A DNA stretch of 61,055 bases, filler included, from 5 parts of 5 records of this genome joined end to end with filler, not necessarily neighbours in it, one strand, 5' to 3'; numbered from the whole stretch's first letter, positions 21,044-38,622 are shown. Numbers and translations are program-made. Notes: generated by a model from the letters alone, not told the origin.

Positions 21044-21045
21044 TT

Positions 21046-21678: not shown

Positions 21679-21686
21679 GAGGCATA

Positions 21687-23180: not shown

Positions 23181-23737
23181 GCGACCGGGACGCGCTCTCT
23201 TTGACCTCCGGGGAACTGGGTTCTGAGAGGGTCGGTGTTGCCAATAGCCCTCTTATCAAGGGACAATGATCTCAGCTCCGAACGCATGTTGTTTGACAGT
23301 TGTGACAGTATATTGTCATAGCGCTTCAGAAGATCGAGGAGACGGACGAAGAACCGTACTTCATAAGTCGCAACTTCCTTTTTCTTCCTCCATTCGTAAT
23401 ACTTCTCACAATGTTCTGTCCGGACCCGTGTTTCAAACTCTTTTACCGCAGGCTTCGCTGACCCCTTAACCTCTGCATACTCATTGATGACTTGCACTTT
23501 AGCCTCTTCAAACTTCTGGTCATACCATTGATCAAAGTCCAGATCAATTAGGAGCTTCTTTGTCTTGGCTCTCTGGTATTCAACTTGCACTGTGAGTGCG
23601 ATTGACATATAGGAGGCCAATGCAGTATTGACCTCTACAGGGGTGACTTCTTCCTCGTGCACAAGCTTTGCCAGCTTGTCAAACTTCGCGATGTTCCGGA
23701 GAACGAATTCTTCATAATCTTTAATAATACTATCCAT
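23177..23737 (-). CDS. Coiled-coil protein, possibly UvsY-like recombination mediator
   Basis: Start re-set to MDSIIKD (186 aa); long helical protein; the phage also encodes RecA. Confidence 0.45.
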   Translation of the reverse strand: MDSIIKDYEEFVLRNIAKFDKLAKLVHEEEVTPVEVNTALASYMSIALTVQVEYQRAKTKKLLIDLDFDQWYDQKFEEAKVQVINEYAEVKGSAKPAVKEFETRVRTEHCEKYYEWRKKKEVATYEVRFFVRLLDLLKRYDNILSQLSNNMRSELRSLSLDKRAIGNTDPLRTQFPGGQRERVPVA

Positions 23738-23773
23738 GAAATCATAGTTAGACCTGTTAAGTACTATAAAAAC

Positions 23774-24187
23774 ATGAACGATGCAGTAGCTATTGAGATC
23801 CTTTATATCCTCCCGAAACGACAGGATCGCTGGATCTATGTGATAAACGACGGACGCAGACACTTGGAGACCACTGACGGCATCAGGCGGCTGGTGTTCC
23901 CTCTTTTGGAGGACCAAAATATCCCCCGGTTCATGGAACTAGTCTCTACCCTTGAGCGTATTCTGATCATCCCTTCCTCTCCGGATCAGGTCTTCTTATT
24001 AGAGAATGATCCGAATGCAATCCGAGAGCGGGAAAGGGTCGAAGTAAAGCTTCAGAAGATGCAACCTGACAAAGAGTACCAAAAGATGATTCAAAAGAAG
24101 CAAAAAGGAGAGGGGAAAGTGGGTTCCGATGACAACTCTAAACGCTCACAAAAACTGATCAACGGCATGCTCAAGTTTTTCGACTGA
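23774..24187 (+). CDS. Phage hypothetical protein
   Basis: Start re-set to MNDAVAI, which removes the overlap with the divergent gene; TACTAT-N6-ATG. Confidence 0.65.
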   Translation: MNDAVAIEILYILPKRQDRWIYVINDGRRHLETTDGIRRLVFPLLEDQNIPRFMELVSTLERILIIPSSPDQVFLLENDPNAIRERERVEVKLQKMQPDKEYQKMIQKKQKGEGKVGSDDNSKRSQKLINGMLKFFD

Positions 24188-24218
24188 TTTCTCTAATATT
24201 CGGCTTTATAGACTACTT
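24188..24218 (+). promoter_or_regulatory. Phage promoter motif copy 1 (CTCTAA-N17-TACTT)
   Basis: CTCTAA 24191-24196, TACTT 24214-24218. Confidence 0.8.
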
Positions 24219-24263
24219 ACTTGGTAAAGAAATATGAGGGTATATCCCTCGAAAGGATGATAG

Positions 24264-25367
24264 ATGAAACTGAATTTATCCAATCTGACCAAGTACAAAA
24301 AGGTTATAACGCGGATTTCTACCACAGGACATCCTAAGTTTGAGAACCTGTATTTTGACTTCCAGAACAAAATGATCTTCGCACAGGGGCCGAAGGAGGT
24401 TAAGGCCGGAATCCGTGTAGACATGGCGTTGATGGGAGATGAGACATTCGAGCAGTTTGGAGGCTTCTATGTACCCGCAATGAAGCTCCTCTCAGCGATC
24501 AGCCGCTCCCCTGAAGATATCACCCTCACTGTAGACGGAAAGTTCCTCCTATCCAACGGGGACAGCGTCAAACTTAAAATAACAGAAGATCCTACCTATG
24601 AGTCCCCTGAGGTTTTCAGAGAATCAGACACCGAATGGATTCTTGAAGATGAGAAACTGATGAAAGCCTTTGAAACATCACTGACTTTTGCTGAAGCGGA
24701 TATTGAAAAGCCTCTCTGTGGTGTCTTCATCGAGAATGGTATATTGCAGTCATCGGATGAGTCTGCGTACTTTATGTATCGCCTCAATGAACAGGCCGCC
24801 ATGTCGGGCCTAAACCTCCCTCTCCCCTTAAGATTCGCACGACTTTTCCACCCTGCATATAGTGCAAGTGAATCTGCCCTGCATCTATCGCAGGATGAGA
24901 ACGCAGTGTTCTTCCACTGTGGGGATATCGGCGTAGTTTGCTCCAAGGTCAGCAATCTTGAAATGATTGGTTATGATGACCCAGAATTCCAAGCATCGAT
25001 TAGAATAAATAACTACATAAAGTTGGACACAAAGACCCTACGGGGAGAGTTCAACTACTTAAGCCCCTTCTATATGGAAGCGCCCGGCACACGTATTAAG
25101 CTGACAGTTGTAGGGGATGACCTGCACATTAGCGTGACCGACACCCATGAAGTGCTTGTCAAGGTTCCGATTCTTTCCAAGTCAGAAGGATTCTCCTTAC
25201 CTGATGGTTACTACTTCTGGCTTTCTGGAGCCGATGTCAAGCAGACCGTTTTCCTCCTGAATGACGACGAGGAGGGATTCACCTTCAGGATCAACCCTGA
25301 AGGTGATTCTGTAACCTTTGAAGACAACGAAGGAATCACCATCGTTCAAGTTCTGATGGATGAATAA
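24264..25367 (+). CDS. DNA polymerase III beta-clamp-like sliding clamp
   Basis: 367 aa (DnaN length); repeated alpha/beta domains; 'KPLCGVFIENG..QSSD' resembles DnaN 'R..L.GV......VATD'. Confidence 0.6.
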   Translation: MKLNLSNLTKYKKVITRISTTGHPKFENLYFDFQNKMIFAQGPKEVKAGIRVDMALMGDETFEQFGGFYVPAMKLLSAISRSPEDITLTVDGKFLLSNGDSVKLKITEDPTYESPEVFRESDTEWILEDEKLMKAFETSLTFAEADIEKPLCGVFIENGILQSSDESAYFMYRLNEQAAMSGLNLPLPLRFARLFHPAYSASESALHLSQDENAVFFHCGDIGVVCSKVSNLEMIGYDDPEFQASIRINNYIKLDTKTLRGEFNYLSPFYMEAPGTRIKLTVVGDDLHISVTDTHEVLVKVPILSKSEGFSLPDGYYFWLSGADVKQTVFLLNDDEEGFTFRINPEGDSVTFEDNEGITIVQVLMDE

Positions 25368-25369
25368 TC

Positions 25370-25966
25370 ATGTATAACAAAACTGACATTACACACGGCA
25401 CCAGCCGAGCACAGACTAAGACATTGTTGCTGAATAAACTAACCAACTTTCTCAGTAACTTTCCTATCTGGATGGACTTGAGCATCGATGGTGATGACAT
25501 CTATTTGTACTTTGCTGATCGAGACTACCTTCTTCCTAAGGGAGCGCCGGATCACCTGCTCTACAAAATCAGATACAACCTCCCAGTGGTCGAGAATGTC
25601 TTCCAGATTCGGAAGATGCTGGTAGACAATTGGGCACCCCGTCTCCACTCGGTAACCCGGACCAAGCGCCCTGCGACCAAGCAAGAGATCGAGGAGATCC
25701 TCGGGCGAGGCGAATCTGTCCCTATGGAGGGTATAACCGAAGAAGAGGTACAAGAGCTCTTCATGTCGAAGATAATCCTCAGGAACGCCACTGTCGTGCT
25801 CTCAGAAAGAAATCTGAGGACCGGGAAGAAATGGTTCTACACCCTCAAGCGTCCTCTTGAAATGATCCTGGACAAGTATCAGACAATGAATGCGGAAGAG
25901 TTCTACAAGTTCTTCCTGACCAAGGCCACCTTGAAGAAGGTGGAAGAGTTCAAGATAGGAGAGTAG
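25370..25966 (+). CDS. Phage hypothetical protein
   Basis: 198-aa ORF tightly packed between clamp-like gene and exonuclease. Confidence 0.7.
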   Translation: MYNKTDITHGTSRAQTKTLLLNKLTNFLSNFPIWMDLSIDGDDIYLYFADRDYLLPKGAPDHLLYKIRYNLPVVENVFQIRKMLVDNWAPRLHSVTRTKRPATKQEIEEILGRGESVPMEGITEEEVQELFMSKIILRNATVVLSERNLRTGKKWFYTLKRPLEMILDKYQTMNAEEFYKFFLTKATLKKVEEFKIGE

Positions 25967-25968
25967 AT

Positions 25969-26952
25969 ATGGTACGGCTGAGATATAAATACATTCTTGT
26001 GGACCTTTCCAATCTGTATGCAAGAGCTTTCTTCACCCGCCAGAATGAAACGTTCCTGAATCAGCAGAACAAAGAGGTCGCGACTGGGGGGATCACTGGA
26101 GGCATCGCTATGTTGAAGAACCTCAAGCGCGATTATTTAGCGGAAGATGGGGAGATCTACATTCTGGTGGACAGCCATGGGAATTCTGCACCTGATGAAT
26201 TGCACCCCTATGAGAATTATCGGAAATCGATTATGCCCCAGTACAAGGGAACGCGTAAGGAAAAAACTGATGCATATAAAGCTGGCATCCCGGTTCTGAA
26301 AAATATCCTTCTCTCACTTGGAGCGCCTTACTTCATCATTGAAGTCCCTTCCCTTGAGGCAGATGATCTGGTGAAACCGCTTCTGAAGCTTCTGGAGCCC
26401 AAGGAATTCGAGGAGGCTATGCTTTTAACCAATGATGAAGACTGGTCCGTGAACATTACGGAAAACGTTATATGGAAAAGTGAGCAAAACGGAATGATGG
26501 GATCAAGAGAATTTCAAGAAAAGATGGGATTTTCTCCTGAAAAAGTGATTCTATACAAATGTATCAGAGGAGACCGGAAAAGTGATAATATCCCTCCCGG
26601 AGTCCCCTATCTCCCCTCTGACCATTTAAAGTACATCCTGAACAATTATACCACTCTACAGGAGCTCTATGCGAATCTAGATATGGAGGATCACATCCCA
26701 GAAAAATGGAAAGAAAGTATCCGTAGTAGGAACCATGCTCTCCGGATTAACGAGAAGGTGATCATGCCGATTCCTCTGGACCAAACCCTTCTGTCTCGAT
26801 ATCTGACGGCCTCACGTTTCAATGCCACCTTTTTAGAGTCAATCCTCACTTCTCTAAGGATCGATCCTCGTAGTATTGATTATCGCTTGAAGTCATCCCG
26901 GAATGAAAACACTCACAGCCCACTACGGCGGAGGAAGCTGAACCGAGCATAG
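25969..26952 (+). CDS. 5'-3' exonuclease/flap endonuclease (T4 RNase H-like)
   Basis: 'LVD..N..R.F', 'YR.....YKGTR', 'EADD', 'TNDED', 'GD..DNIP'. Confidence 0.9.
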   Translation: MVRLRYKYILVDLSNLYARAFFTRQNETFLNQQNKEVATGGITGGIAMLKNLKRDYLAEDGEIYILVDSHGNSAPDELHPYENYRKSIMPQYKGTRKEKTDAYKAGIPVLKNILLSLGAPYFIIEVPSLEADDLVKPLLKLLEPKEFEEAMLLTNDEDWSVNITENVIWKSEQNGMMGSREFQEKMGFSPEKVILYKCIRGDRKSDNIPPGVPYLPSDHLKYILNNYTTLQELYANLDMEDHIPEKWKESIRSRNHALRINEKVIMPIPLDQTLLSRYLTASRFNATFLESILTSLRIDPRSIDYRLKSSRNENTHSPLRRRKLNRA

Positions 26953-26956
26953 TAAC

Positions 26957-26985
26957 TTGACATCCATTCGAGGGGATGTTAATAT
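26957..26985 (+). promoter_or_regulatory. Host sigma70-type promoter with palindrome in the spacer
   Basis: TTGACA-N17-TAATAT; ACATCC-N8-GGATGT at 26960-26979; ATG 6 nt after the -10. Confidence 0.65.
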
Positions 26986-26991
26986 TCTAAC

Positions 26992-27240
26992 ATGGGAAAT
27001 ATGGATGAACAGGAGAATCTAAATAAGCTCTACAAACCGGAAGACAGTCACCCTCTGAAACATTGGGCTGACGTACTTGGGTTGAAGCCCAAGGTTTTTC
27101 GGAACGCTTGTAGCCGGGCACGTATCACACCAGCTCCTGATGAACAGAATTACCGTTCTTACCTTACGTTTGAACAGTTCAGAAAAGTAGCAATCCATAC
27201 AGAAATTGGAAAGCAAATGTTTCTGGACAGAAAGCTTTAA
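26992..27240 (+). CDS. Small putative HTH DNA-binding protein
   Basis: 'LKHWADVLGLKPKVFRNACSR' HTH-like pattern. Confidence 0.55.
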   Translation: MGNMDEQENLNKLYKPEDSHPLKHWADVLGLKPKVFRNACSRARITPAPDEQNYRSYLTFEQFRKVAIHTEIGKQMFLDRKL

Positions 27241-27245
27241 TGGTA

Positions 27246-27271
27246 TGCACTCTTCGGAGTGCAATTTTTTT
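27246..27271 (+). terminator. Rho-independent terminator with UUCG tetraloop
   Basis: tgcactc-ttcg-gagtgca then a T-run. Confidence 0.85.
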
Positions 27272-27316
27272 CTCTAAATCTTTCTCCAATCGAGTACTTC
27301 CTTGATATAGGAGAAA
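27269..27316 (+). promoter_or_regulatory. Phage promoter motif copy 2 with SD-sequestering hairpin
   Basis: CTCTAA 27272-27277, TACTT 27295-27299; tttctcc (27281-27287) pairs with ggagaaa (27310-27316). Confidence 0.8.
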
Positions 27317-27320
27317 CACA

Positions 27321-27590
27321 ATGTCTGAAGAATTGACAAACATGACCGATGCCCAAAAAGAGGCAGTTACAAACCTGTTTACCAGAAAGCTGGAACAGGA
27401 GGACAGCAACAAGTTGATTATGGATGGGATCGGAGCCGAGTTCAAGGCTGTAGCCAAAGAGCTCGGGATCAAGGTCGCAGAGCTGAGCCGTTCATACACG
27501 AAGCATAAGGCCCGGATCAACGACCCTCTGAAGGAGGAGAAATCTGATGAGATCCTCCTCCACTGTTACCCTAATAGTTACGACAAGTAG
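27321..27590 (+). CDS. Small helical DNA-binding protein, T4 DsbA/GapR-like
   Basis: 89 aa; 'IGAEFKAVAKELGIKVAELSR' pattern; close to the RNase H-like gene as in T4. Confidence 0.5.
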   Translation: MSEELTNMTDAQKEAVTNLFTRKLEQEDSNKLIMDGIGAEFKAVAKELGIKVAELSRSYTKHKARINDPLKEEKSDEILLHCYPNSYDK

Positions 27591-27595
27591 TCAAG

Positions 27596-27625
27596 GCGCA
27601 CCTCAAATACGGGGTGCGCTTTTTT
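27596..27625 (+). terminator. Rho-independent terminator
   Basis: gcgcacctc-aaatac-ggggtgcgc then a T-run. Confidence 0.8.
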
Positions 27626-27640
27626 ATTGACTATGAGTTC

Positions 27641-28153
27641 ATGCTAGAGAAAGACTTCAATTCCCTATTCCAGAAAGTTATCAATTTTCATGATGCAGGC
27701 TTTGCATACAAAATCCCGGACCCACCGAAACAAGCGATTAACTCCTCGGCCAAACGGCCATTCGACATCATGGGGTCCTTGAAAGGCAAGCCGCTCGGGA
27801 TTGAGAACAAGCTGATCAAGTCGCACTTCGGTGCATTTAACTTATCTCGGCTGGAAGATCATCAGCTCCCTAAGCTTTTGGAGATGTATGCGGCGGCGGG
27901 AGATGACACATACATCGGTGTGGGCGTCTGCTGGTGGCAGTCCCGTACTCTTTACGAGTTCATATACTTCCCAGTCACGACAATGCACTGGATGACCGAG
28001 AAAGGTTACTCATCGATCCCCAAGAAAGCCCTTTTGGAGCTCCGCCCGGATCATGCAATCCCGGTTAAGAAGGGACTATTTGATGTATCACTGCTGGAGT
28101 CCCGGCCTGTGAGAATCTCAAAGCTGAGTCTTTTATCAGATCATCTCCGGTAG
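27641..28153 (+). CDS. RecU-like Holliday junction resolvase (PD-(D/E)XK)
   Basis: Start re-set to MLEKDF; 'KIPD', 'PFD', 'IENK', 'EDHQ'. Confidence 0.75.
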   Translation: MLEKDFNSLFQKVINFHDAGFAYKIPDPPKQAINSSAKRPFDIMGSLKGKPLGIENKLIKSHFGAFNLSRLEDHQLPKLLEMYAAAGDDTYIGVGVCWWQSRTLYEFIYFPVTTMHWMTEKGYSSIPKKALLELRPDHAIPVKKGLFDVSLLESRPVRISKLSLLSDHLR

Positions 28154-28199
28154 TTTCTCTAAAAATATCTCCAGCAGAGTACTTAATCTATGTGAGGTA
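28154..28199 (+). promoter_or_regulatory. Phage promoter motif copy 3 with SD-sequestering hairpin
   Basis: CTCTAA 28157-28162, TACTT 28180-28184; tatctc (28166-28171) pairs with gaggta (28194-28199). Confidence 0.78.
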
Positions 28200-28205
28200 A
28201 ACCTA

Positions 28206-29045
28206 ATGACAAAAGATCAGTTTGACCTGTATACCAAGGTCCATAAGAAAAAAGGGTATTCCAAAGCTTGCTGTCGATGTGGAGAAATGCACTACTATCT
28301 GCACAAGTCTCCGGAGTTCCCCAAACCAACCGCTTGCCCCATCTGTGGGGAGGAATGGTGGGATAAACCCCTCGATGAAGCAAAATGTTTTAATGCACAG
28401 AAAGTCTATCTGGCAGACCGTACCAATGATAACTTTTACAAACTTTACAATGAGGTCTACCCCTACGCAGTAAGAACTGCTCAGGGGATGCTCCGATCCA
28501 AGAAGATTATTCCAGATTTACATGAGAAGGCACATGACGGAACCATGATCTTTCTCTCCAATTTTCTGACCAACGAGAACCATAAAGTGGAGTTGTCCTT
28601 CGGTTCCTTTCTAGAACGTGTTTTGAGGGGTCCCCTCTTCAAAGATGCACTGCACGATCAAGTGCTCTCCCTCGACTGGAAGAAGCCTGACGGAGACAGT
28701 AACCTCGGTCAGTATCTCGGAACTGATGACGATGAACCAGCCATGTCCACCCCCACCAACCAGATCTATTACGATGAACAACTGGAGGGCACGGCCACGG
28801 AAAATGGCGTAGTACAGGACATCCTCAAGATCATCGATGTATTCTGTGATGACCTCCGGGGAACTGACCCTGCTGGGGCGCTTCTACTCCGTGCCGGGAT
28901 CTATACATTTTTCCTTCAGAAGTCCCGCTCCTCGATGGACGTTTTCTACGATTTGGCCGGGGAAGAAATCACTGAGCTTCTTGACCGATTTGCCCTGTAC
29001 CTCCGGGACTACCTATACCAGACAGGAAACTTGATTAGCGAGTAG
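28206..29045 (+). CDS. Putative phage sigma-like factor with N-terminal Zn ribbon
   Basis: CxxC-X18-CPxC, then a sigma region-2-like segment (FYKLYNEVYPYAVRTA...DLHEKAHDG...SFGSFL) and 'VLSLD'. Confidence 0.5.
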   Translation: MTKDQFDLYTKVHKKKGYSKACCRCGEMHYYLHKSPEFPKPTACPICGEEWWDKPLDEAKCFNAQKVYLADRTNDNFYKLYNEVYPYAVRTAQGMLRSKKIIPDLHEKAHDGTMIFLSNFLTNENHKVELSFGSFLERVLRGPLFKDALHDQVLSLDWKKPDGDSNLGQYLGTDDDEPAMSTPTNQIYYDEQLEGTATENGVVQDILKIIDVFCDDLRGTDPAGALLLRAGIYTFFLQKSRSSMDVFYDLAGEEITELLDRFALYLRDYLYQTGNLISE

Positions 29046-29069
29046 TATTGACCTGCTTACTATCATGGT

Positions 29070-29546
29070 ATGAAATCTTTAGTCGATAACCCGAAGAACA
29101 TTTTTGAAGTGCAAGTCAATGAGGTGCTTCAAAGGAAAATATCTGATGAGGAGCTTCTGCTCTCCATCGCCTCAATGGTTTTTTTCTCAAACCCTCGAAA
29201 CGAGTCCCTTACCAAGCTCTATAATAATGTAGGGCTGGGGCCCTTTGTCCAAGTGATGGACACCTTTAGTGGGAAAACCATCACCTTTCCCACCAAGCAA
29301 GAGCTGGAGGAGCTTCTGACCTTGAGCATGTGCTTCTACTTCCGAGAGATCGAGGAGAAGGAATGGGATGAGATTCAATCGATCATACCTTTTGAGCTGA
29401 ACACGGTGCTCTTAGGCCATAAAATCGGAGGAATCAACAAAATGATTAAAAACCACCTGAGCAAGAAAAGCTCGTCTGGGAGATACTCCCCTACCCCGGA
29501 TTTTTCGCAGGCCTACGAGACCTTCAGGGAAGTTTTTTCAAAATAA
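29070..29546 (+). CDS. Mor/C-family-like transcription activator
   Basis: 'VGLGPFVQVMDTFSGKTITFP' matches the Mor-type 'G.....L...FGG..IY.P' pattern; helical C-terminus. Confidence 0.55.
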   Translation: MKSLVDNPKNIFEVQVNEVLQRKISDEELLLSIASMVFFSNPRNESLTKLYNNVGLGPFVQVMDTFSGKTITFPTKQELEELLTLSMCFYFREIEEKEWDEIQSIIPFELNTVLLGHKIGGINKMIKNHLSKKSSSGRYSPTPDFSQAYETFREVFSK

Positions 29547-29605
29547 TTCTCTAAAAAATCGGCTTCAGGGGTACTTCTCTTTAACAGACCATCATGAGGA
29601 GTACC
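29547..29605 (+). promoter_or_regulatory. Phage promoter motif copy 4 with SD-sequestering hairpin
   Basis: CTCTAA 29549-29554, TACTT 29572-29576; ggtacttctc (29570-29579) pairs with gaggagtacc (29596-29605). Confidence 0.8.
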
Positions 29606-29607
29606 AC

Positions 29608-30195
29608 ATGAAGCCGGTATCATTTGAAGAGTATTGTTCAACTTATGAACAGACTGGTCGCTGTCCGGGGGATACCATTTCTTCCGGGAATAAGCGCCGC
29701 CCCCTAAATGAGAGGGAGCTAAAAACCAGATATATGAAATACTGCTCCAAGCTGGAACAGAAAGAACTCCGGAAAGAGAAGCAGTTCAAAGAGCTCAAAC
29801 AGAGCTCCGACCGCACTTGCACCAAAATGATCAAAGACAAGCGTTGGGAGGACACTCGGAAGGCCGTATACAACCGCGACCACCGGGAGTGCCAGCTCAT
29901 CAAAGCCATCAACGTACGCGAGGTGGCCATCCTGTATTCTAACTGTGGGCATCTAGTCAACTTCCTCGATCCTGCCCATATCTTCGGGAAGGGTGCCTTC
30001 CCTACCATGAAATATGACGTAGACAACATCACAGCCCTTAACCGCTACAGCCACACCATGCTGGATACAGGGCATTGCCCATTGACCGGCAAACAGATTT
30101 CAGCAACGGAAGTTGCCTTTTGGTGGAAACGAATCATTGGGGAGAAACGATATGAAGCGCTCAAAGAAAAAGCCGAAGACACACGCCGCTCCTAA
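29608..30195 (+). CDS. HNH-type nuclease (NinG/Rap-like)
   Basis: 'W...RKAVYNRD..CQ', 'DPAHIF......YDVDNITAL.R..H'. Confidence 0.65.
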   Translation: MKPVSFEEYCSTYEQTGRCPGDTISSGNKRRPLNERELKTRYMKYCSKLEQKELRKEKQFKELKQSSDRTCTKMIKDKRWEDTRKAVYNRDHRECQLIKAINVREVAILYSNCGHLVNFLDPAHIFGKGAFPTMKYDVDNITALNRYSHTMLDTGHCPLTGKQISATEVAFWWKRIIGEKRYEALKEKAEDTRRS

Positions 30196-30451
30196 GAAGG
30201 AGCAGGAAGTCAAACCGCCACATCCCTACGTTGGGAAACAAGGATCGCCTGCGGGTCAAGACTGGACTTGCACTATCAAAGCGGTACGTCCCTCTCGTGA
30301 CGGTGAGCGGATGTACTGCGATTTCGAGAACAGTTTTACCTGCTCTCTCGAAACGGTAGTCATTCAAGAAGAGGAAAGTATTGGCGAAGAACAAGAAAAC
30401 GCTGAGCGGACTGGAGGCCCTACAAGCAGACCTACAGAAGAAGTACGGTGA
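30152..30451 (+). CDS. Phage hypothetical protein
   Basis: Fills the gap between HNH and recA but overlaps both. Confidence 0.4.
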   Translation: MKRSKKKPKTHAAPKKEQEVKPPHPYVGKQGSPAGQDWTCTIKAVRPSRDGERMYCDFENSFTCSLETVVIQEEESIGEEQENAERTGGPTSRPTEEVR

Positions 30452-31493
30452 GTCCATTTCGGACTGGAATCAAGTAGGGAAAGTCCCGAGGATTCCAACC
30501 GATGCATATAGACTCGATAAAGCCCTTGGTGGAGGACTTCCTGAGGGCCGTGTTATTGAAGTGTTTGGTCCTGAGAGCTCGGGTAAGACATCACTTGCCC
30601 TGTTTCTTGCAGGCGTCTACCAGAAAAATGGATTCAATACGGCATACATAGACCAAGAGCATGCTATAGATCCTCAGTATTCATTATCCTTTGGGTACGA
30701 CCCCACCAAATCAATTTTTTCACAGCCTGACTATGCTGAGCAGGCCCTTGACATTGCAATAGACCTTGCATCCTCGGGTCAGATCCGTTTGATTTGCCTC
30801 GACAGTGTGGCCGCACTGTCTCCGCGAGCAGAAGTGGAAGGAGAGATGGGGGATGCACAGATTGGGCTTGTGGCGCGGCTTATGAGTAAGTTCATGAGGA
30901 AAATCACTCCAATCCTGCGGCAGAACAACTGTACTCTCATCCTAATCAACCAGACTCGGGTCAAGATTGGCGGCTGGTCTCCCACTGGTGCCGCTCCGGA
31001 GGACACCACAGGAGGAAAGGCCATCAAGTTCTTTGCCTCAATCCGATGCAAGGTGACTCGTGGTGACGGCATCCTGAGCGGAAAAGACACCATCGGTATG
31101 ATTTCCAAGATCAAAATGGTTAAGAACAAGACCGCTCCTCCATTCCAGACCGCAGAGATGAAGATAATCTTTGGTCAAGGATATCAAGTCGAGGCCGATT
31201 GGGTGGATGCCTGTATCGATTTCGACATAATCAAGAAGGGCGGTGCATGGTTCTCCATTCCCGATACCGAGTTCAAGTTCCAAGGCCGAGAGAAATTAGA
31301 AGCGTTCCTATATGACCGGCTGGACGTTTTTGAGCCCCTCAAGCTTCAAGCGAAAGACCTACTGGCCGGGAATGTCGCAGAGCATGAAGTCGATGGTGAT
31401 GACCTCCCTGAAGACCTCCCTTCTGACGAAGAGCTCCTGATCCTGACCCCCGAAGACCTGAAGGAAATGGCCGCAGACGCGGCTGAGGACTGA
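30381..31493 (+). CDS. recA: RecA recombinase (phage-encoded)
   Basis: 'GPESSGKT', 'DSVAAL', 'ARLMS', 'INQTR', 'GGKAIKF', 'KNKTAPPF'; TTG start after GAGG. Confidence 0.95.
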   Translation: MAKNKKTLSGLEALQADLQKKYGESISDWNQVGKVPRIPTDAYRLDKALGGGLPEGRVIEVFGPESSGKTSLALFLAGVYQKNGFNTAYIDQEHAIDPQYSLSFGYDPTKSIFSQPDYAEQALDIAIDLASSGQIRLICLDSVAALSPRAEVEGEMGDAQIGLVARLMSKFMRKITPILRQNNCTLILINQTRVKIGGWSPTGAAPEDTTGGKAIKFFASIRCKVTRGDGILSGKDTIGMISKIKMVKNKTAPPFQTAEMKIIFGQGYQVEADWVDACIDFDIIKKGGAWFSIPDTEFKFQGREKLEAFLYDRLDVFEPLKLQAKDLLAGNVAEHEVDGDDLPEDLPSDEELLILTPEDLKEMAADAAED

Positions 31494-31512
31494 GCCGTTA
31501 AAGCCATATTGC

Positions 31513-31551
31513 AAAAAGGAGAGGTTTTTTCCGAAAAATCTCTCCTTTTTT
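31513..31551. terminator. Terminator hairpin overlapping a degenerate phage promoter
   Basis: aaaaaggagaggttttt-tccg-aaaaatctctccttttt; TTTTCCGAAAAA at 31527-31538 and TACTT at 31554-31558. Confidence 0.7.
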
Positions 31552-31587
31552 GGTACTTACCTTACATATCACTCAACGGAGGAATTC

Positions 31588-31731
31588 ATGAGTAATTCTA
31601 ACATCACAGTTAATGGAAAGAAGGTCAGCAAGGCTGAGCTTTCCAAGATCAGAGAAGAGACCAAGACACAGAAGGGTGTGAAGCTGGTGGAGGTCTCTCC
31701 AAACAATTTCAAAAAGCAAATAAAGGGGTGA
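31588..31731 (+). CDS. Small basic phage protein (47 aa)
   Basis: Missing from the ORF track; GGAGG SD; MSNSNITVNGKKVSKAELSKIREETKTQKGVKLVEVSPNNFKKQIKG. Confidence 0.7.
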   Translation: MSNSNITVNGKKVSKAELSKIREETKTQKGVKLVEVSPNNFKKQIKG

Positions 31732-31733
31732 GA

Positions 31734-32081
31734 ATGAGTCAACAAATTGATATGAATGATCATTCAAAGAGGCTTAGCTCGATTGCAGACCTCTCCATTC
31801 TTCAAGCGAAGGAGCTACTGGAGGCACAGGCGATCACCGCCGTCATGGACTGCATCGAGACCGACTCCATTGCCATCCCGCTCATCGGTACTCTACACAT
31901 AAAGCACACCGACGACATCACGGATGCTGAAGGGAAGAAGGCCATTCTAGAATGTAACTTTGAACCGGATCCCTTCCTGCGGAAGTCTATAGGGCAGGCC
32001 GCTGATGGAGTGGCTACAGAAGCAGATGAGCTCTATCGGAAAAAGACTGAATCCCAGCTCATGAAATCCATAGGAGATTAA
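31734..32081 (+). CDS. HU/IHF-like DNA-binding protein (divergent, acidic)
   Basis: Two N-terminal helices, 'SIAIPLIGTLHI', 'FEPDPFLRKSI' resemble HU 'V.I.GFG.F' and 'F.P...LK..V'. Confidence 0.5.
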   Translation: MSQQIDMNDHSKRLSSIADLSILQAKELLEAQAITAVMDCIETDSIAIPLIGTLHIKHTDDITDAEGKKAILECNFEPDPFLRKSIGQAADGVATEADELYRKKTESQLMKSIGD

Positions 32082-32087
32082 GCTTTG

Positions 32088-32783
32088 ATGGATGAATTTC
32101 TGTTGAGGTTTGATCAAGAGCTCGGTCAAGAAGTATCAGTCCCAAACCCAGAGTTTGAAGCAGAGAAAGAACGAGTTCACCGGGAGAAAGCATACACCAC
32201 TGCTGGAATCCCGGAGAGCCGGTTCAACCTCTCCTTTGACTCTTATATCGGGGAAAAGTCTAAGGGGAACCTTAAATCTCTGGAGTTCTTTATTACGAAC
32301 TTCGAAAAGGCCTGTCGCTCTAAAGCAAACCTGTACTTCTGGGGAGGAAACTCAACTCAAAAGAGTAGTGTCGCTACAGTTATGGGAATGCGGTTGATCG
32401 ACGCCGGGCATTCTGTACGGTTTATCACGTTCTCGGAACTAACAGATCACCTCCAGAACGAGCAGTTTAATGAAGACTCACGAGACCTGATAAACAACCT
32501 TTATAAAGTCGAACTTCTAATTGTGGATGATGCCTTTGATCTGAAAAAGACCAAGATGTACAAATCTGGGCACCAAATCCCTTTTCTGGACTCTTTCTTT
32601 CGACGGAAACTGGAGACCACCAACACCCTGACACTATTTACAAGTAACACCCGCTTGGAAGATTTAGAGGCGCAGTTCAACACCGATATCAATCACCTCC
32701 TCCGGCGAAATGTCCGTGCTCTCCACTTCCAAGATGATGTGAACTATTTCGAGATAGACAACGACTTCTGGAGTGAAGAGTAA
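32088..32783 (+). CDS. DnaC/IstB-like AAA+ helicase loader
   Basis: 'GIP......SFD', degenerate Walker A 'GGNSTQKS', Walker B 'LLIVDD', 'TSN'; directly upstream of DnaB. Confidence 0.75.
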   Translation: MDEFLLRFDQELGQEVSVPNPEFEAEKERVHREKAYTTAGIPESRFNLSFDSYIGEKSKGNLKSLEFFITNFEKACRSKANLYFWGGNSTQKSSVATVMGMRLIDAGHSVRFITFSELTDHLQNEQFNEDSRDLINNLYKVELLIVDDAFDLKKTKMYKSGHQIPFLDSFFRRKLETTNTLTLFTSNTRLEDLEAQFNTDINHLLRRNVRALHFQDDVNYFEIDNDFWSEE

Positions 32784-34172
32784 ATGGTAAAAACTGAAAT
32801 AATTGTCAAAGAGCAACTTTTGTTAGCTTGCCTGCTGAACAGTCGGGACCCATACCTGTCCCTGTCCGTAGAGAACTGTTTTTCGGAACCATTGTCTCAA
32901 GCAATTTTCTATGGAATTCAGTCTACGGCAAAGGCCGGTCTTGGGATGCTCCCTGACAACATTTTAAAGTATGCAGTTAAAAAACATTCGTCTGTAACTC
33001 GGACAACGATTGAACGGCTGATTGAAAAGCCCCATGACCTCAATGGTTTTGAACTCTATTACGAAGACTGCCGGAAGACCTATGCCCAGTCACAGATACA
33101 AGACCACATCCTAAAGGACGCTCTTGTGGAGGCCTCAAGCAAAGATGGCCTAAGTATTGAGGGTATGGAAGCGATAGTCCGGAAGATCCAAGACAATCTA
33201 GAGGTAGTACGCGGGTCTGGAACAAAAATCCTGTCTGGTAGAAAGCTGGCAGAGGCACAGAATGAGCGATATCAACTCCGAAAGGAAGGGCATGCCAAGT
33301 ATACCACCGGAGACGCCTTTCTTGATAAGCAGCTAATTACGGGGTGTGCCCCGGGCGAGATATCAACGATCTTTGGTGCATCTGGATCTGGCAAATCTGC
33401 AAAAGTCATGAACAACTTCTCTGGGCTAATCAACAAACGGGTCCCCTGTGCGTTATTCACATTGGAGATGTCTGCGGAAGCGTCTCTTGACCGACTCACA
33501 TCAATCCGGTCTGGTCTCCCCATGGAGAAGTTCTATAAGGCACAAGAGGATGACGGATATGACCTCTTTTTCTACGAGGAGGCTCGCCGAATCCAGAGCC
33601 TGCTTGCACAGAAAGATCATTTCCGGGTTATCGACGATCCGAGTATCAGCATGTCCACTCTGGAAAACTATGTGATACAGCTACAGCGGATCTTTAGGTC
33701 AAAATATGTTATGTGCATTATCGACCTTGGGACAATGCTGAAAGAGCTCTCCTCAGGGAAGCCACAAGAAATTGAATACGGTATGAACATTCTGAGTGAG
33801 GTGGCAAAACGCACTGGTGTGCATTTCATGCTTGTAGTGCAGGCCAGTCGTTCTGCCGACTCCGCAAACGTAACCTGTATTGACCATCTGGATCGTCTCC
33901 GCCCAACACAGAACGATATCAAGAACTCAGCGGCGATCTATGAGAGATCCCGTCTGGTTATCTCCACATTCAGACCGAAGTTCTATGCCATGCGTATCTT
34001 TGGTAAGGACGATGAAGAAGTACAATATATGAAGGATATCATGGAGATTACAATCCAGAAGCAGAGTAACGGTGCGGTCGGCCAGCGGCTTCAGTATATC
34101 TACCATGCACCCACATTCCGCTGTCTCCCCTACCGAGAGGAGCCTGTTCCTATAATTGAGGAAGCCGCATGA
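32784..34172 (+). CDS. dnaB: DnaB-like replicative helicase
   Basis: 'TG...LD....G', 'GASGSGKS', 'LEMS', 'Q.SR', 'D.K.S.AI'. Confidence 0.85.
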   Translation: MVKTEIIVKEQLLLACLLNSRDPYLSLSVENCFSEPLSQAIFYGIQSTAKAGLGMLPDNILKYAVKKHSSVTRTTIERLIEKPHDLNGFELYYEDCRKTYAQSQIQDHILKDALVEASSKDGLSIEGMEAIVRKIQDNLEVVRGSGTKILSGRKLAEAQNERYQLRKEGHAKYTTGDAFLDKQLITGCAPGEISTIFGASGSGKSAKVMNNFSGLINKRVPCALFTLEMSAEASLDRLTSIRSGLPMEKFYKAQEDDGYDLFFYEEARRIQSLLAQKDHFRVIDDPSISMSTLENYVIQLQRIFRSKYVMCIIDLGTMLKELSSGKPQEIEYGMNILSEVAKRTGVHFMLVVQASRSADSANVTCIDHLDRLRPTQNDIKNSAAIYERSRLVISTFRPKFYAMRIFGKDDEEVQYMKDIMEITIQKQSNGAVGQRLQYIYHAPTFRCLPYREEPVPIIEEAA

Positions 34173-34507
34173 TAGTTGATGATGTCCTTTCACAGATTCA
34201 GAGAAATCTACTGAACCCCCCGTCCCAACAAACCGGAATCATCGTCCTTGAAAGGAGTGTGAATGCCGCAGAGCGTGTGCAACACCAGCTACTACAGAGG
34301 GTTGTTGAACATGGCTTATCTGGACATGTGCGGAATCAGAAGCCTTGCATGCTCTTCTTCCCACATTTCACAATCTTCTTTTCTGCCTCCAAGACCCCTC
34401 TCCCTGAGGGGGATTTGGAGGGCTGTAAAGGAACCGAGTTCATGTATCAGTTGGATGGCCTGTTTAAGACGGGTCAGAACTGGATTCTTTTTGACGGCGC
34501 TCCTTGA
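34169..34507 (+). CDS. Phage hypothetical protein
   Basis: ATGA start/stop overlap with dnaB. Confidence 0.55.
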   Translation: MIVDDVLSQIQRNLLNPPSQQTGIIVLERSVNAAERVQHQLLQRVVEHGLSGHVRNQKPCMLFFPHFTIFFSASKTPLPEGDLEGCKGTEFMYQLDGLFKTGQNWILFDGAP

Positions 34508-34715
34508 ATTTCTTCGGTTCCCACTGGATCAACCAACGAATCCCTTTCAATGCCCATACCAAGAGCTGGAGGGGTAAGTAAATCCACCAGCAGAAGAATA
34601 CAGCCACACTTGACTCAAGATCCCTCTTTTTGTTCAAAAAAGAATAATGGATCTTAGCCATTACCAAGCCACATAAAAGATAAAACAACAACGCAAATAT
34701 TATTCCGTATTCCAT
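34464..34715 (-). CDS. Small membrane protein (2 TM, basic C-terminal tail)
   Basis: Two hydrophobic segments; GACTAT-N6-ATG. Confidence 0.6.
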   Translation of the reverse strand: MEYGIIFALLFYLLCGLVMAKIHYSFLNKKRDLESSVAVFFCWWIYLPLQLLVWALKGIRWLIQWEPKKFKERRQKESSSDPS

Positions 34716-34721
34716 GGGTTT

Positions 34722-34770
34722 ATAGTCCTCCCCCCGGATTTCTCTAAAAAATCAGATTTAGGCCTACTAG
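34722..34770. promoter_or_regulatory. Phage promoter motif copy 5 overlapping a divergent promoter
   Basis: Plus strand: CTCTAA 34742-34747, TACTAG 34765-34770, ATG at 34777. Minus strand: TTTTTA-N17-GACTAT-N6-ATG (34715). Confidence 0.7.
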
Positions 34771-34776
34771 GAAGAC

Positions 34777-36663
34777 ATGAACAACTACCAAAACCCTCCC
34801 TTTCTGCTAATCCAAATCGAAGGAAATTACGGGGTGAAAATCCAATACCCGCAGGTCCCACAAGAAGATCGGGAGGATCTTTCTGAACTCATGCAGTCCT
34901 ACCGTGGGAAGTTTCATGAAACCCATAAGAAGTATCCGGGATGGACCTTCTTCTACAGGGTTCCTCAGGAGTTCATAGGTGCCTGTATAACGGCCCTTTA
35001 CGGCTTCTTTGATATCCCGATGCCACTGGAGCACAGACACTTCATACAGAACTTCACAGAGACAGACCGCGTCCGAGCCCTTGTGCATCGAGATCTACTG
35101 AAATATCCTCCGAAAGGCGATTTCCAGCTTGACTCAATTCAGCGGGGTGTACAAAGCAATGCACTGATATGGTTTCTGGAAATGGGAATGGGGAAGTCCT
35201 ATATCTCAATCTCCACCCTCAATCACCGCCGCACTCATGATGGTGTAGATAAGATCCTCATCCTGTGTCCGCCTGAAGGGGTTTACAACTACCAAGCAGA
35301 GCTGATCAGGTTCAGTGTTCCGATGATCACCGAGGATGACATCTATATAGTAACCCCAGAAAATCGAGAACCCTTCGCTCCAGATCAAACCCGGCCTGTC
35401 GTCATATGTACCTATCGCCGTTTCCTGATGATCTGCGAAGATGAATACAAAAGGACCCGGAAGAAATCAGTCCCCGAGTCACGGTTCATACATAACCCGA
35501 TATTTGATCTCTCAAAGTGGGGCACCAACCGGGCTCTGATCATGGATGAAATGCACTTCCTCCGGAACAAAGAGAGCAAACAAACTGCACTTACCTTTGT
35601 GCATGCCAAATTCTTCCAGTTCCGATACGGGCTCACCGGAACACTTATCCCGAAAGGCCCCGAGAACCTCTGGACTCAAATGCGAATCATCGACCGCTAT
35701 GCCATCGGGATGCCTTTTCAGGCCTATGTGGATGAGATCGCTTTTAAAGGCAATATGTATAGTGAATCCGCAATCACAGAGTACAAGCCTGAAGGGGTGG
35801 ACAAGTGGAATCGCAAGCTCTCTCCATGGATCGACAAGAAGCTGGCAAAAGATTACCTGAACCTTCCCCCTCTGGTGGCTGAGAAAATCCTCTGTGAGCC
35901 CTCTGCTCGCCAGCAAGAGTTATACAGGGGTTTAGCCCAGTCTGAGTTCAGCAGGATCAGAGAGAAAGCAGGAGGAACCCTCGATGTCGCTGAAGTTGAG
36001 CAGGTGTTCCCCTACCTGCTCTTGGCCCTTGATGATCCGTCCCTTTTACGCGGAAAGATCACCGGCAAGAACAAGGCACTAGAACGGATGTGCAACAACT
36101 GGAAGTTCAAGGACCATGGGAAAATCGATATCTGTGAATCCCTGATTGAGAAGCATGTAAAAACTCTGGAGCAGAAAATGATTGTGTGGTCCGGGCACCC
36201 CTCTACGTTGGATTCACTGGCTAAACATTTCTCCAAGTATGGGGTAAAGGCTATGCATGGGGAGACAGTTGCTCCCTACGGGGATCAGATCCAGTTCCGT
36301 GCCGATGTGATCCGAGAGTTTGAAGACCCTACCTCTGACCTGAAAATTCTCTTTCTCAGTTATCTGGCGTTCTCGACGGCCATCACTCTGCTACAGGCCA
36401 AGGCCACAATATGGTTCGATCTACCGACCTCATACGAACATTTTGCTCAGGCACGTAAGCGTAACCACCGCATAGGACAGGAGGATATCGTAACCTGCTA
36501 TGACTTAGTTTTCAGGAACTCTCTACAGGAATTCAACTACAATTCCTTGGTATATGGGAAGGGTCTTCGGAACGAGCTGATGTTCAAGAACACCGACACT
36601 CCGCTGACCAAGGAAGACTGGCGGAATATTCTGACCGGGAAGTACGTGTCTAAATACCAGTAA
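34777..36663 (+). CDS. SNF2/DEAD-like superfamily 2 helicase
   Basis: 'EMGMGKS', 'DEMH', 'LTGT', 'Q...RNHRIGQ'. Confidence 0.9.
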   Translation: MNNYQNPPFLLIQIEGNYGVKIQYPQVPQEDREDLSELMQSYRGKFHETHKKYPGWTFFYRVPQEFIGACITALYGFFDIPMPLEHRHFIQNFTETDRVRALVHRDLLKYPPKGDFQLDSIQRGVQSNALIWFLEMGMGKSYISISTLNHRRTHDGVDKILILCPPEGVYNYQAELIRFSVPMITEDDIYIVTPENREPFAPDQTRPVVICTYRRFLMICEDEYKRTRKKSVPESRFIHNPIFDLSKWGTNRALIMDEMHFLRNKESKQTALTFVHAKFFQFRYGLTGTLIPKGPENLWTQMRIIDRYAIGMPFQAYVDEIAFKGNMYSESAITEYKPEGVDKWNRKLSPWIDKKLAKDYLNLPPLVAEKILCEPSARQQELYRGLAQSEFSRIREKAGGTLDVAEVEQVFPYLLLALDDPSLLRGKITGKNKALERMCNNWKFKDHGKIDICESLIEKHVKTLEQKMIVWSGHPSTLDSLAKHFSKYGVKAMHGETVAPYGDQIQFRADVIREFEDPTSDLKILFLSYLAFSTAITLLQAKATIWFDLPTSYEHFAQARKRNHRIGQEDIVTCYDLVFRNSLQEFNYNSLVYGKGLRNELMFKNTDTPLTKEDWRNILTGKYVSKYQ

Positions 36664-36710
36664 TTTCTCTAAAAACAGCTCCTTCGGGATACTTATCCTT
36701 CGAAGGAGTT
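36664..36710 (+). promoter_or_regulatory. Phage promoter motif copy 6 with SD-sequestering hairpin
   Basis: CTCTAA 36667-36672, TACTT 36690-36694; ctccttcg (36679-36686) pairs with cgaaggag (36701-36708), loop ACTT. Confidence 0.8.
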
Positions 36711-36714
36711 GAAC

Positions 36715-37752
36715 ATGAATTCACGAGAGAGAATCTCCCGTAGACTACTCATTTCCCATAATGACCTTGATGGATGCTGTGGAGGTCTCCTTGGAGAGCT
36801 TCTAAATCAATCACCACAGGTCGCATTTGACAAGAAGTTCCAGAGAGTGCTTCTCCTTGACTACGATTTCGAAAAGGATGAATCCCTGTGGAACTCAATC
36901 CTTTTCTATGATGAAATTATCATTGTTGATCTATCTCTTCCTGAGCCCTTTTTGAAGGAGCTCCTCGATGCCAAAAAAAAGGTAACGATTTACGATCACC
37001 ACGCCTCATCTGAATATCTGAAAGAATATAGCGAGCTAGGCATTCATGATGAATCCCGCTGTGGATCACTTATATTCTTAGAGGAGTACATTGTCCCGGC
37101 CATGAGTGTCGTCCCGATGCCTTGGTACCACATGGTGAAGCTGGTGGACACCTATGATCGTTGGCAGGATGACACCATCTACTGGGAAGATGCACTTATC
37201 CTGAACCGATGCCTCTACCGAATGAAGGACTACTCCATCTTAGCGGATAGCCGAGCGGCTTATCAGGAGTGGTTTGACTTCTATAAGCAAAAGTTGACAC
37301 GTCTAGAAACATGGAAATGGATGAGAAAAGAGCTGGAGCTCAATGGGCGCGGGGTAAAGCGGGAGAATGAGATTTACCAGCAGGCCCTTGAAGAAATCGA
37401 AGTCCGGGTAGACACACAAGGGAATGCCTTTGGAGTTGTTTCGATGTCGGGCGGAGTGTCCCTCTGTGCACGTCGGCTCCTCGATTCGGATTATGGACAC
37501 CTTGCCTATGTGATCATCATCAATACCTACGAGGATGAGCTGGGGAAGTTGTCAATCAGATCCCATAAAGAGGGATTTGATGTGACTACACTTGCCCCCT
37601 TCGGAGGTCACCCAGCGTCTGGAGGCACCCGAGTATCATCAGAGATTGTGAACTTCTTTTTCAATAACCCGAATACATGCTTCCTGCCATGGGAGGAAGT
37701 CGGACAAAACGAAGATGGCACCCCCAAAATGTCTCCCCTCGCCATTTTGTAA
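36715..37752 (+). CDS. DHH/DHHA1 phosphoesterase (NrnB/oligoribonuclease-like)
   Basis: 'SHNDLDG', 'VDLS', 'DHH', 'DTYDRW', 'GGHP.SGG'; ATG after AAGGAG. Confidence 0.85.
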   Translation: MNSRERISRRLLISHNDLDGCCGGLLGELLNQSPQVAFDKKFQRVLLLDYDFEKDESLWNSILFYDEIIIVDLSLPEPFLKELLDAKKKVTIYDHHASSEYLKEYSELGIHDESRCGSLIFLEEYIVPAMSVVPMPWYHMVKLVDTYDRWQDDTIYWEDALILNRCLYRMKDYSILADSRAAYQEWFDFYKQKLTRLETWKWMRKELELNGRGVKRENEIYQQALEEIEVRVDTQGNAFGVVSMSGGVSLCARRLLDSDYGHLAYVIIINTYEDELGKLSIRSHKEGFDVTTLAPFGGHPASGGTRVSSEIVNFFFNNPNTCFLPWEEVGQNEDGTPKMSPLAIL

Positions 37753-37769
37753 CTATGGAGAAAAGACCC

Positions 37770-38504
37770 ATGGAGACGAATAATATGACCAAAAGACTGA
37801 GAGACTGGATTCAGGAGGAGCTGGACTCCGGAACTCCTATGGAGGAGCTGAAGTCTTATTACAAATATCAGGACTTCACCGGGCTGACTGGGGATAGTAT
37901 GCAGTACTCTTCCTACGAGCGGCGGCTGAGAAGCTTTAAAAACACTGACAGAGTTTATGATCCGCAGGATGCAGGGCAATCGGATGTTCTGGATGAGTCT
38001 GAGCAAAGCAGTGAGGATAGTATGGAGATGTTCAAGGATACTCTCCAAGAGGATGCCCGGATGCTTCACATCCGTTCCGCTACGATCCGCACTGTAGAAG
38101 ACCTGCTGGACTTTGCAGACATCGATACCGATGAATGGGAAGTTGTCAATAAAGAGGCGAATGTCTGGGGTGGTGCAGATTCTGGGTTCTATCAAGTCAA
38201 AGCTAAGCTCAAAAAGAGAAAGCCCGAAGACCTGACCCCTGAGGATTATGCAAAGATTTTTGATGATCTGGTATCCGAATTCAAAGATAAGTTCCCCAAG
38301 ACTAAGTTCAAACCCAAGTGGCGGTTCACGAAGAGGGGTTCCAATAATGCTCTGGAAATTGCACTAGTAGACCATCACTTTGATCTGCACAGTTTCAGGG
38401 ACATCCGTTCTGCCGAAGAGCGCATTGGATGCTTCATTGCAACGGTACAGGAAATCATCCGGAAAGCGAAGCCTTATGGTATACAGAAAGTTTTCTTCAT
38501 TGTC
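37770..38504 (+). CDS. Putative calcineurin-like metallophosphoesterase, N-terminal part (3' truncated)
   Basis: 'ALEIALVDHHF' DxH motif near the contig edge; start uncertain (37755, 37770 or 37785). Confidence 0.5.
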
Positions 38505-38622
38505 NNNNNNNNNNNNNNNNNNNNNNNNNNNNNNNNNNNNNNNNNNNNTTAATTAATTAANNNNNNNNNNNNNNNNNNNNNNNNNNNNNNNNNNNNNNNN
38601 NNNNCAAGCAAAGTACGCTTAA

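Follow-up and report, generated by a model that had tools for sequence, protein, structure and literature searches.

The 61,055-base stretch of DNA analysed here (the window) includes a phage contig in which a two-block motif, a predicted promoter, stands ahead of six genes. At three of them (27321, 29608 and 36715, designated by their first base), the spacer between the two blocks carries the 5' arm of a stable RNA hairpin whose 3' arm contains the gene's own Shine–Dalgarno (SD) sequence. Computed folding indicates that RNA reading through from upstream would have its ribosome-binding site closed at these genes, whereas RNA begun at the motif would have it open. This is probably a new example of the control known from gene e and I-TevI of phage T4, in an unrelated phage lineage.

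The motif, TTCTCTAA[A/T]-N16-TACT[T/A], occurs in six copies in the phage contig. Every copy is on the + strand, is intergenic and lies 7–45 nucleotides (nt) ahead of a start codon, and the spacing between the two blocks is exactly 16 nt in all six. Four exact matches to TTCTCTAAA-N(12-22)-TACTT were found against 0.01 expected. These are copy a (27270–27299; TTCTCTAAA-N16-TACTT), the predicted promoter of an 89-amino-acid gene (27321–27590), copy b (28155–28184), ahead of a gene for a sigma-like protein (28206–29045), copy c (29547–29576), ahead of a 195-amino-acid HNH/NinG-like gene (29608–30195), and copy d (36665–36694), which is abutted by the stop codon of an SNF2 gene and precedes a DHH phosphoesterase gene (ATG at 36715, end at 37752). 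A mismatch-tolerant search added two copies of which the first-pass annotation had made no use: copy e (34740–34769; TTCTCTAAA-N16-TACTA), ahead of the SNF2 helicase gene (34777–36663), and copy f (24189–24218; TTCTCTAAT-N16-TACTT, with one mismatch), ahead of a sliding-clamp-like gene (24264–25367). The upstream gene's stop codon abuts the motif in copies b, c, d and f. Sigma-70-family promoters are built in this way, of two conserved blocks that a free spacer keeps 16–17 bases apart, and we infer that the motif is the standard promoter of the replication and recombination module of this phage. Nothing relevant to the motif string was found among the literature matches listed. The HNH/NinG leads for gene 29608 are weak (PHROG E-values of 5e-4 and 1e-3; look-alike clusters in which 26–39% of the members are HNH or NinG).

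All three hairpins are on the + strand. Hairpin a (27281–27316) has 13 base pairs (bp) and a folding energy of −13.1 kcal/mol. Its stem consists of seven perfect pairs (27281–27287 with 27310–27316) and six more between ATCGAG and CTTGAT, one of them G-U, and closes on the loop TACTTC; the 5' arm is in the motif spacer and the 3' arm holds the SD sequence GGAG. Hairpin c (29558–29618; about 20 bp, −31.8 kcal/mol) contains a core of 10 bp with one G-U pair (29570–29579 with 29596–29605), which is extended by pairing of 29558–29567 with 29609–29618. Its 5' arm reaches from the spacer to a point 3 nt beyond TACTT, and its 3' arm covers the SD sequence GAGGAG as well as the UG of the AUG codon. 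Hairpin d (36676–36711; −20.6 kcal/mol) has 15 bp with a 2-nt bulge, made up of 8 + 4 bp and CAG/UUG, closes on the loop ACTT and holds the SD sequence AAGGAG in its 3' arm. In all three, the 5' arm lies entirely at or upstream of the position 3 nt past TACTT, the SD sequence and the start codon lie in or with the 3' arm, and the pairing probability of the SD sequence is 1.0. The ACT element is in the loop of hairpins a and d and inside the stem of hairpin c; in copies b, e and f the motif is unstructured. The first-pass annotation had listed eight arm segments, in four pairings, and all eight carry the letters given for them; its description of the third pairing was sound and left out half of the stem.

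Leaders of 75–85 bases were folded together with 200 dinucleotide-preserving shuffles of each. The resulting z-scores were −3.65 for a (1 of 200 shuffles as stable), −7.61 for c (0 of 200) and −3.62 for d (1 of 200), placing these three pairings far beyond chance. Covariance models from Rfam had no match at a, c or d, and gave two sub-threshold matches at chance level, both on terminator hairpins elsewhere. Two other roles for the structures were considered and rejected. As intrinsic terminators they would need a U run, and the bases that follow them are CACAAUG, AUCAUU and AACAUG, respectively; they are also absent from the list produced by the terminator scan. Translational coupling was discarded as the 5' arms are outside the upstream reading frames, beginning 12–15 nt past the stop codons.

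The cost of opening the ribosome-binding site was calculated as the free energy needed to make positions −15 to +3 single-stranded, in a long RNA that includes 60 upstream bases and in a short RNA that starts 7 bases after TACTT. Opening requires 11.7 kcal/mol in the long RNA and 2.9 kcal/mol in the short RNA at copy a, 22.1 and 6.7 kcal/mol at copy c, and 16.5 and 1.6 kcal/mol at copy d. Shuffled upstream sequence reached the long value in 3, 0 and 0 cases out of 200, respectively. The proposal of the first-pass annotation, that read-through RNA hides the site and motif-started RNA exposes it, is thereby borne out in computation for a, c and d (from 12–22 down to 2–7 kcal/mol). Its fourth case, copy b, did not withstand the same comparison, either in leader stability against shuffles or in occlusion of the ribosome-binding site against shuffled upstream sequence. 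When leaders a, c and d were placed behind each of the other five upstream regions, the cost was 5.2–11.3 kcal/mol, below the 11.7, 22.1 and 16.5 kcal/mol of the cognate combinations, which means that each of these arms fits its own leader only; the earlier statement that every spacer pairs with its own SD region stands for these three copies. Counted from the end of TACTT, the cost at a, c and d collapsed as the 5' end was moved stepwise from −20 to −10, and it was low for all 5' ends from 0 to +12, so that the result is independent of the exact start site.

An unbiased ranking led to the same genes. For the 57 callable genes of the window, upstream-dependent occlusion was scored by comparing the context −75 to +33 with −20 to +33. 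The genes of copies c, d and a ranked first, second and third (15.2, 13.6 and 9.2 kcal/mol), against a median of 1.1 and a 90th percentile of 5.6 kcal/mol. By chance, all three top ranks would go to members of the set of six motif genes with a probability of 20/29260 = 0.0007, or of 0.011 if the ranking is confined to the 23 genes of the phage contig. The remaining motif genes ranked 8 (f), 19 (b) and 42 (e).

The other three copies differ in how their ribosome-binding sites behave. In copy b, the sequence 28166–28171 can pair with 28194–28199 through 6 bp, one of them a G-U pair that the first-pass annotation had not noted, across a 22-nt loop. This is chance level: the z-score is +0.14, 102 of the 200 shuffles fold as well, and the opening cost of 7.4 kcal/mol (4.8 in the short RNA) is reached by 67 of 200 shuffled upstream sequences. 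The pairing arises because a CTCC, 7 bases ahead of TACTT, meets the ribosome site GAGG. The same CTCC occupies the same position in copies a, b and d, and part of the anti-SD pairing therefore comes with the motif itself. Copy f shows no promoter-dependent occlusion, its ribosome-binding site being structured in long and short RNA alike (12.0 and 11.9 kcal/mol; 27 of 200 shuffles; z = −0.40). In copy e, the ATG is 7 nt past the TACTA element, so that the transcript would apparently be leaderless, and an AGGAAG ribosome site would still be present in read-through RNA at gene 34777. Its long value (2.4 kcal/mol; 0.04 in the short RNA) was matched by 2 of 200 shuffles, an effect that is numerically trivial as the cost is low both ways and no hairpin is formed (z = +1.47). 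Since b, e and f are ungated, the hairpin does not belong to the function of the motif, and with three of six copies gated its use is selective. The first-pass annotation had envisaged a systematic and unusual timing circuit that included the sigma-like gene itself, and this is not what the evidence shows. An ungated sigma-like gene would fit start-up logic better, as read-through RNA could supply the factor at a stage when none is yet present.

The sigma-like gene (28206–29045, + strand) encodes 279 amino acids with an N-terminal zinc ribbon, a fold resembling sigma region 2 and a C-terminal helical domain. An exhaustive HMMER search of 1.84 billion proteins retrieved 115 cluster representatives, of which 44 had E ≤ 1e-10. 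Among 51 family members scanned, the 25 most frequent of 73 Pfam families were mainly zinc-ribbon domains or domains of unknown function, and included no sigma family. A profile search of the protein against PDB sequences gave chance-level rows only, with no sigma match, and neither a region 2 nor a region 4 domain is recognisable in it by sequence. A structure model built from 51 sequences had a predicted local distance difference test (pLDDT) score of 86. The best Foldseek rows for this model were mostly sigma factors, but at E-values of 9e-3 or worse. With VIA-align, residues 54–149 were superposed on region 2 of SigC of M. tuberculosis (2o7g_A; Z 8.2, root-mean-square deviation 2.9 Å, 88 of 88 residues) and on ShbA (9isn_F; Z 8.7), and whole-chain rows corresponded to sigma-E, sigma-B, sigma-S and sigma-32; these Z-scores of 7–9 are in a range common for helical proteins (below about 13, according to the tool's own caution). 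The label 'sigma-like' is reasonable but unproven. The motif is probably read by this zinc-ribbon protein, the candidate factor of the phage.

One close homologue of the sigma-like protein was found (56% identity), on a contig of 127,749 bp that also encodes the closest relative of the DHH protein (44% identity). IMG/VR yielded no close relative when searched with the sigma-like protein, the SNF2 protein or a four-sequence alignment, and neither did a metagenome collection or a genome collection searched with the same alignment. In tblastn searches against 50,697 phage records, the sigma-like protein had no match and the SNF2 protein had matches of 20–24% identity only. In 71 metagenome loci with DHH homologues (21–38% identity), 14 motif matches at ≤2 mismatches were counted in 418 kb, with at most two per locus; upstream regions were inspected in 21 of these loci, and their leaders were not alignable.

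A distant relative was retrieved from IMG/VR by means of a back-translated family signature. This contig, G001, has 147,626 bp and a guanine-plus-cytosine (GC) content of 33%, shares 35% (SNF2), 36% (DHH) and 30% (FEN) identity with the corresponding proteins of the window, and encodes a member of the zinc-ribbon family at 102025–102825. It has a late-type motif of its own, TTTTT-N12-14-AACTATT(T)TATTA, found ahead of 17 genes, among them those for tail sheath, tail tube, tail fibre, head protease and a head-protein-like product. Two of the 17 (71702–72319 and 75627–76346) have hairpins, with stems of 14 and 19 bp, whose loop contains the ACT element (72345 and 76372) and whose 3' arm contains the SD sequence. 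Opening the ribosome-binding site takes 14.7 and 11.4 kcal/mol in the long RNA and 0.9 and 1.6 kcal/mol in the short RNA, values that 0 of 100 shuffles reproduced. Among 186 genes they hold ranks 1 and 3, and the other 15 motif genes rank between 14 and 175. The gating design thus recurs in a phage that has a different promoter sequence, where most promoters lack it. The DHH homologue of G001 has a different upstream arrangement, in which hairpin d is not present.

The distance between a −10 element and the start site is usually 5–7 nt. Four genes of G001 (49810, 65464, 98135 and 128194) have their ATG 5–7 nt past the −10-like element, so that RNA from their own promoters would be leaderless. 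Together with copy e of the window, they support the start position assumed in our calculations. We also observed three classes of intergenic motif in G001, namely TTTACA-N17-TATAAT-like sequences, TATACT(CT) with very short leaders, and the AACTATT late-type. In the second class, the CTCT can pair with an AGAGG ribosome site a few bases downstream. A cluster of transfer RNA-like sequences is located near 138–145 kb of the same contig.

We lean, with moderate confidence, towards a reading of the T4 type, in which read-through RNA would be silent at three genes and RNA from their own promoters active. The spacer, otherwise free, would have become the 5' arm of a hairpin at three of the six copies (genes 27321, 29608 and 36715), and the gene's own SD sequence and start codon would serve as the 3' arm. 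RNA reading through from upstream would have both arms and would not be translated at the gated gene, whereas RNA begun a few bases past TACTT would lack the 5' arm and would be translated. Translation of the three genes would in this way be tied to the firing of their own promoters. This reading joins three observations (the motif with its fixed geometry, the stability and specificity of the hairpins, and the placement of their arms with respect to the motif) with a predicted promoter and start site, a putative read-through RNA, a presumed effect on translation and a candidate factor that would read the motif.

The surroundings of the motif copies bear on where read-through RNA might come from. 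In the terminator scan, nothing terminator-like separates copies c and d from the genes upstream of them. Copy a is abutted by a terminator-like hairpin and its T run (27246–27263, + strand), and a strong hairpin resembling an intrinsic terminator (12 bp and a T run; 27593–27622, + strand) closes the one-gene unit of that copy. Further upstream, a consensus sigma-70-type promoter (TTGACA-17-TAATAT with TG; 26957–26985, + strand) precedes an open reading frame (ORF) for 82 amino acids (26992–27240), and is a possible source of early read-through RNA. The promoter, this ORF and the terminator-like hairpin form a small self-contained unit (26957–27263), suggestive of a host in which standard sigma-70 promoters and SD-led translation operate. 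After the RecA gene, another terminator-like hairpin with a T run (31510–31558, + strand) runs into a degenerate seventh copy of the motif (at 31530; three mismatches, GGTACTT). Downstream of this degenerate copy is an unannotated ORF for 47 amino acids (31588–31731) with the SD sequence GGAGG.

Several observations weigh against the T4-type reading. The TACTT block is unlike the −10 hexamer of sigma-70 promoters, and three of the six copies (b, e and f) have no promoter-dependent occlusion, as have 15 of the 17 motif genes of G001. Copy a is already behind a terminator-like hairpin, which makes heavy read-through there less obvious. The candidate factor belongs to no Pfam or PHROG family and matches no Pfam sigma family at E ≤ 0.1, and its fold matches are of the order common among helical proteins. 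A scan of IMG/VR for the motif returned 41 single-match loci, none related to the phage except for one RecA match; the motif of the window is absent from G001, and it is not enriched in the 71 metagenome loci with DHH homologues. None of these searches turned up a relative that has the motif.

The hairpins might be real elements of translation or RNA stability that are relieved in another way, by a protein or RNA acting in trans, by RNase III-type cleavage of stem c or by temperature, their overlap with the motif reflecting a lack of free sequence. We regard this explanation as possible, though doubtful. The gaps between genes are short (45–80 nt) and mostly filled by the motif, so that any 5' arm must overlap it; stem c, with about 20 bp, has the length that a double-strand-specific RNase generally requires, and copy f exemplifies a ribosome-binding site whose structure does not depend on the promoter (12.0 against 11.9 kcal/mol). 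It would not account for the fact that the 5' arm ends by 3 nt past TACTT in all three cases and is never inside the predicted transcript, nor for the same geometry at two genes of the distant phage G001, which has a different motif; Rfam, moreover, has no known RNA family at the hairpin sites. It is unlikely that the motif works at the RNA level or as a protein-binding signal, for example as a processing signal or repressor site common to these leaders, with the hairpins belonging to its context. An anatomy in which a spacer of free sequence and constant length (16 nt) separates two conserved blocks is that of a sigma-70-family promoter, and a structured RNA signal would hardly appear in a loop (a, d), in a stem (c) and unstructured (b, e, f). 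Terminator-like hairpins directly ahead of copy a and of the degenerate copy at 31530 are what would be expected before a new transcription unit. What such a signal would explain is the dissimilarity of TACTT to known −10 hexamers and the position of the motif right at the upstream stop codon in four of the six copies.

We consider it very unlikely that the inverted repeats act in DNA, as an extruded hairpin or cruciform that offers the −10-like ACT element in single-stranded form to the polymerase or the factor, in the manner of N4 virion RNA polymerase promoters. The ACT element is indeed in the loop of four of the five strong hairpins (a and d in the window; 72345 and 76372 in G001), but leaders of only 20–21 nt suffice, by geometry, to put the loop at the −10 element. 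At copy c the element is inside the stem, no such repeat exists at three copies of the window and at 15 of the 17 motif genes of G001, and a role in DNA would leave unexplained that the 3' arms always coincide with the SD sequence. Chance complementarity between CTCC-containing spacers and GGAG-type ribosome sites, which holds for copy b and explains it wholly through the CTCC 7 nt ahead of TACTT in a, b and d, is hardly credible for the three hairpins. Stems of 13, 20 and 15 bp far exceed 4 bp, shuffled upstream sequence equalled the occlusion in only 3, 0 and 0 cases of 200, the arms fit their own leaders only, and the three genes hold ranks 1–3 of 57. A bolder version of the T4-type reading would make spacer-encoded anti-SD arms a design principle of an undescribed phage lineage of about 150 kb with a zinc-ribbon sigma-like factor, the repeat being used twice, in DNA by extrusion that offers single-stranded ACT to the region-2-like domain and in RNA for silencing, as a strict AND gate for nucleases and other risky genes. 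This version we hold to be quite unlikely.

The window consists of five draft contigs joined by four N44-TTAATTAATTAA-N44 linkers (20164–20263, 38505–38604, 49232–49331 and 55568–55667), which appear as N runs. The phage contig is the second of the five (20264–38504, + strand; 18,241 bases), is flanked by linkers and was delimited on the basis of N runs, GC content and gene content. All six motif copies and the hairpins are inside this contig only. The GC content is 36% before it (first contig), 47% within it and 43% after it, and the flanking contigs carry ordinary bacterial genes (LptF/G, beta-oxidation enzymes, an extracytoplasmic function (ECF) sigma factor and transporters) and have no physical connection with the phage contig. 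Because the contigs are joined by linkers and unlike in GC content, gene neighbourhood across linkers is meaningless, and the phage contig and the other contigs may not derive from the same organism. The stretch 20264–38504 is contained whole in a contig of 152,783 bp from the public run X1, which makes it part of a large phage of no less than 153 kb. Among the runs listed for this stretch, X1 is a DNA run and probably the source, X2 contains next to none of it, and none is an RNA run; comparison of X1 and X2 gave no variants.

Within the phage contig, tail-like genes are followed by the replication and recombination module, which comprises genes for a sliding-clamp-like protein, a 5'-3' exonuclease, a resolvase-like protein, RecA, a DnaC-like loader, a DnaB-like helicase, the SNF2 helicase, the DHH phosphoesterase and an exonuclease. 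The RecA gene (30381–31493) is of bacterial type (Pfam RecA, E = 2.6e-82), and its best PHROG match is phrog_97, a UvsX-like recombinase (E = 1.2e-73). Two long ORFs overlap on opposite strands at 23177–23917 (−) and 23657–24187 (+). The stop codon of the latter abuts motif copy f, in the same way as at b, c and d, which favours the + strand ORF as the real one.

If confirmed, the arrangement would extend the promoter-dependent translation of T4 to an uncultured lineage unrelated to T4, whose promoter and candidate factor are both different, and would point to convergent or widespread use instead of a peculiarity of T4. The hairpin boundaries would predict the start sites of an otherwise uncharacterised class of promoters, and a sigma-like gene left ungated, next to nuclease-type genes that are gated, suggests in what order events proceed. 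Also noteworthy is the zinc-ribbon sigma-like family, which is undescribed and has 115 cluster representatives without a Pfam sigma match.

Three kinds of known system invite comparison. The N4 virion RNA polymerase recognises hairpin promoters of 5–7 bp with a 3-nt loop, which are required for recognition and unrelated to ribosome sites. The window resembles them in having an inverted repeat centred on a core element of the promoter; it differs in that its stems have 13–20 bp, are missing from half of the copies and always include the SD sequence. Promoters read by phage-encoded sigma factors are known from Bacillus phage SPO1 (gp28 and gp33/34) and from phiEco32-like phages. These share with the window a repeated, phage-specific motif of two blocks with sigma-70-family spacing and a copy ahead of the factor's own gene, whereas the block sequences are unrelated and the link between factor and motif is here a predicted one. 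A non-exhaustive literature search brought up no description of anti-SD arms encoded in the spacer for systems of the SPO1 or phiEco32 type.

The closest counterpart is T4. Passages of two published accounts (PMC3014915, PMC2988022) describe hairpins that sequester the ribosome-binding site on early or middle read-through RNA of T4 gene e (lysozyme), soc, I-TevI, I-TevII, I-TevIII, segB and further genes, and of the HNH gene mobE of the Aeromonas phage Aeh1, together with a late promoter inside the hairpin that bypasses sequestration. The motif of the window is unlike the T4 late promoter, as it is bipartite with a 16-nt spacer and is not a TATAAATA −10 element, read by gp55, without a −35 block. 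The candidate factor is also different, a two-domain sigma-like protein with a zinc ribbon and no match to cultured phages, and the presence of RecA-, DnaB- and DnaC-like genes is a further difference. The gated genes of the window belong to a replication module, whereas those of the T4 type are late genes, and the case made here is computed from sequence. As far as those passages describe the T4-type cases, the arrangement itself corresponds to the precedent that the first-pass annotation had named (T4 late genes e, soc and I-TevI): a stable hairpin pairs with the SD sequence, a promoter (predicted in the window) lies in the DNA of the 5' strand or of the loop, and the transcript of that promoter (equally a prediction in the window) lacks the 5' arm. 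Gating likewise affects some genes of the promoter class and not others, and gene 29608, possibly an HNH-type nuclease on its weak leads, would find its counterparts in mobE and I-TevIII.

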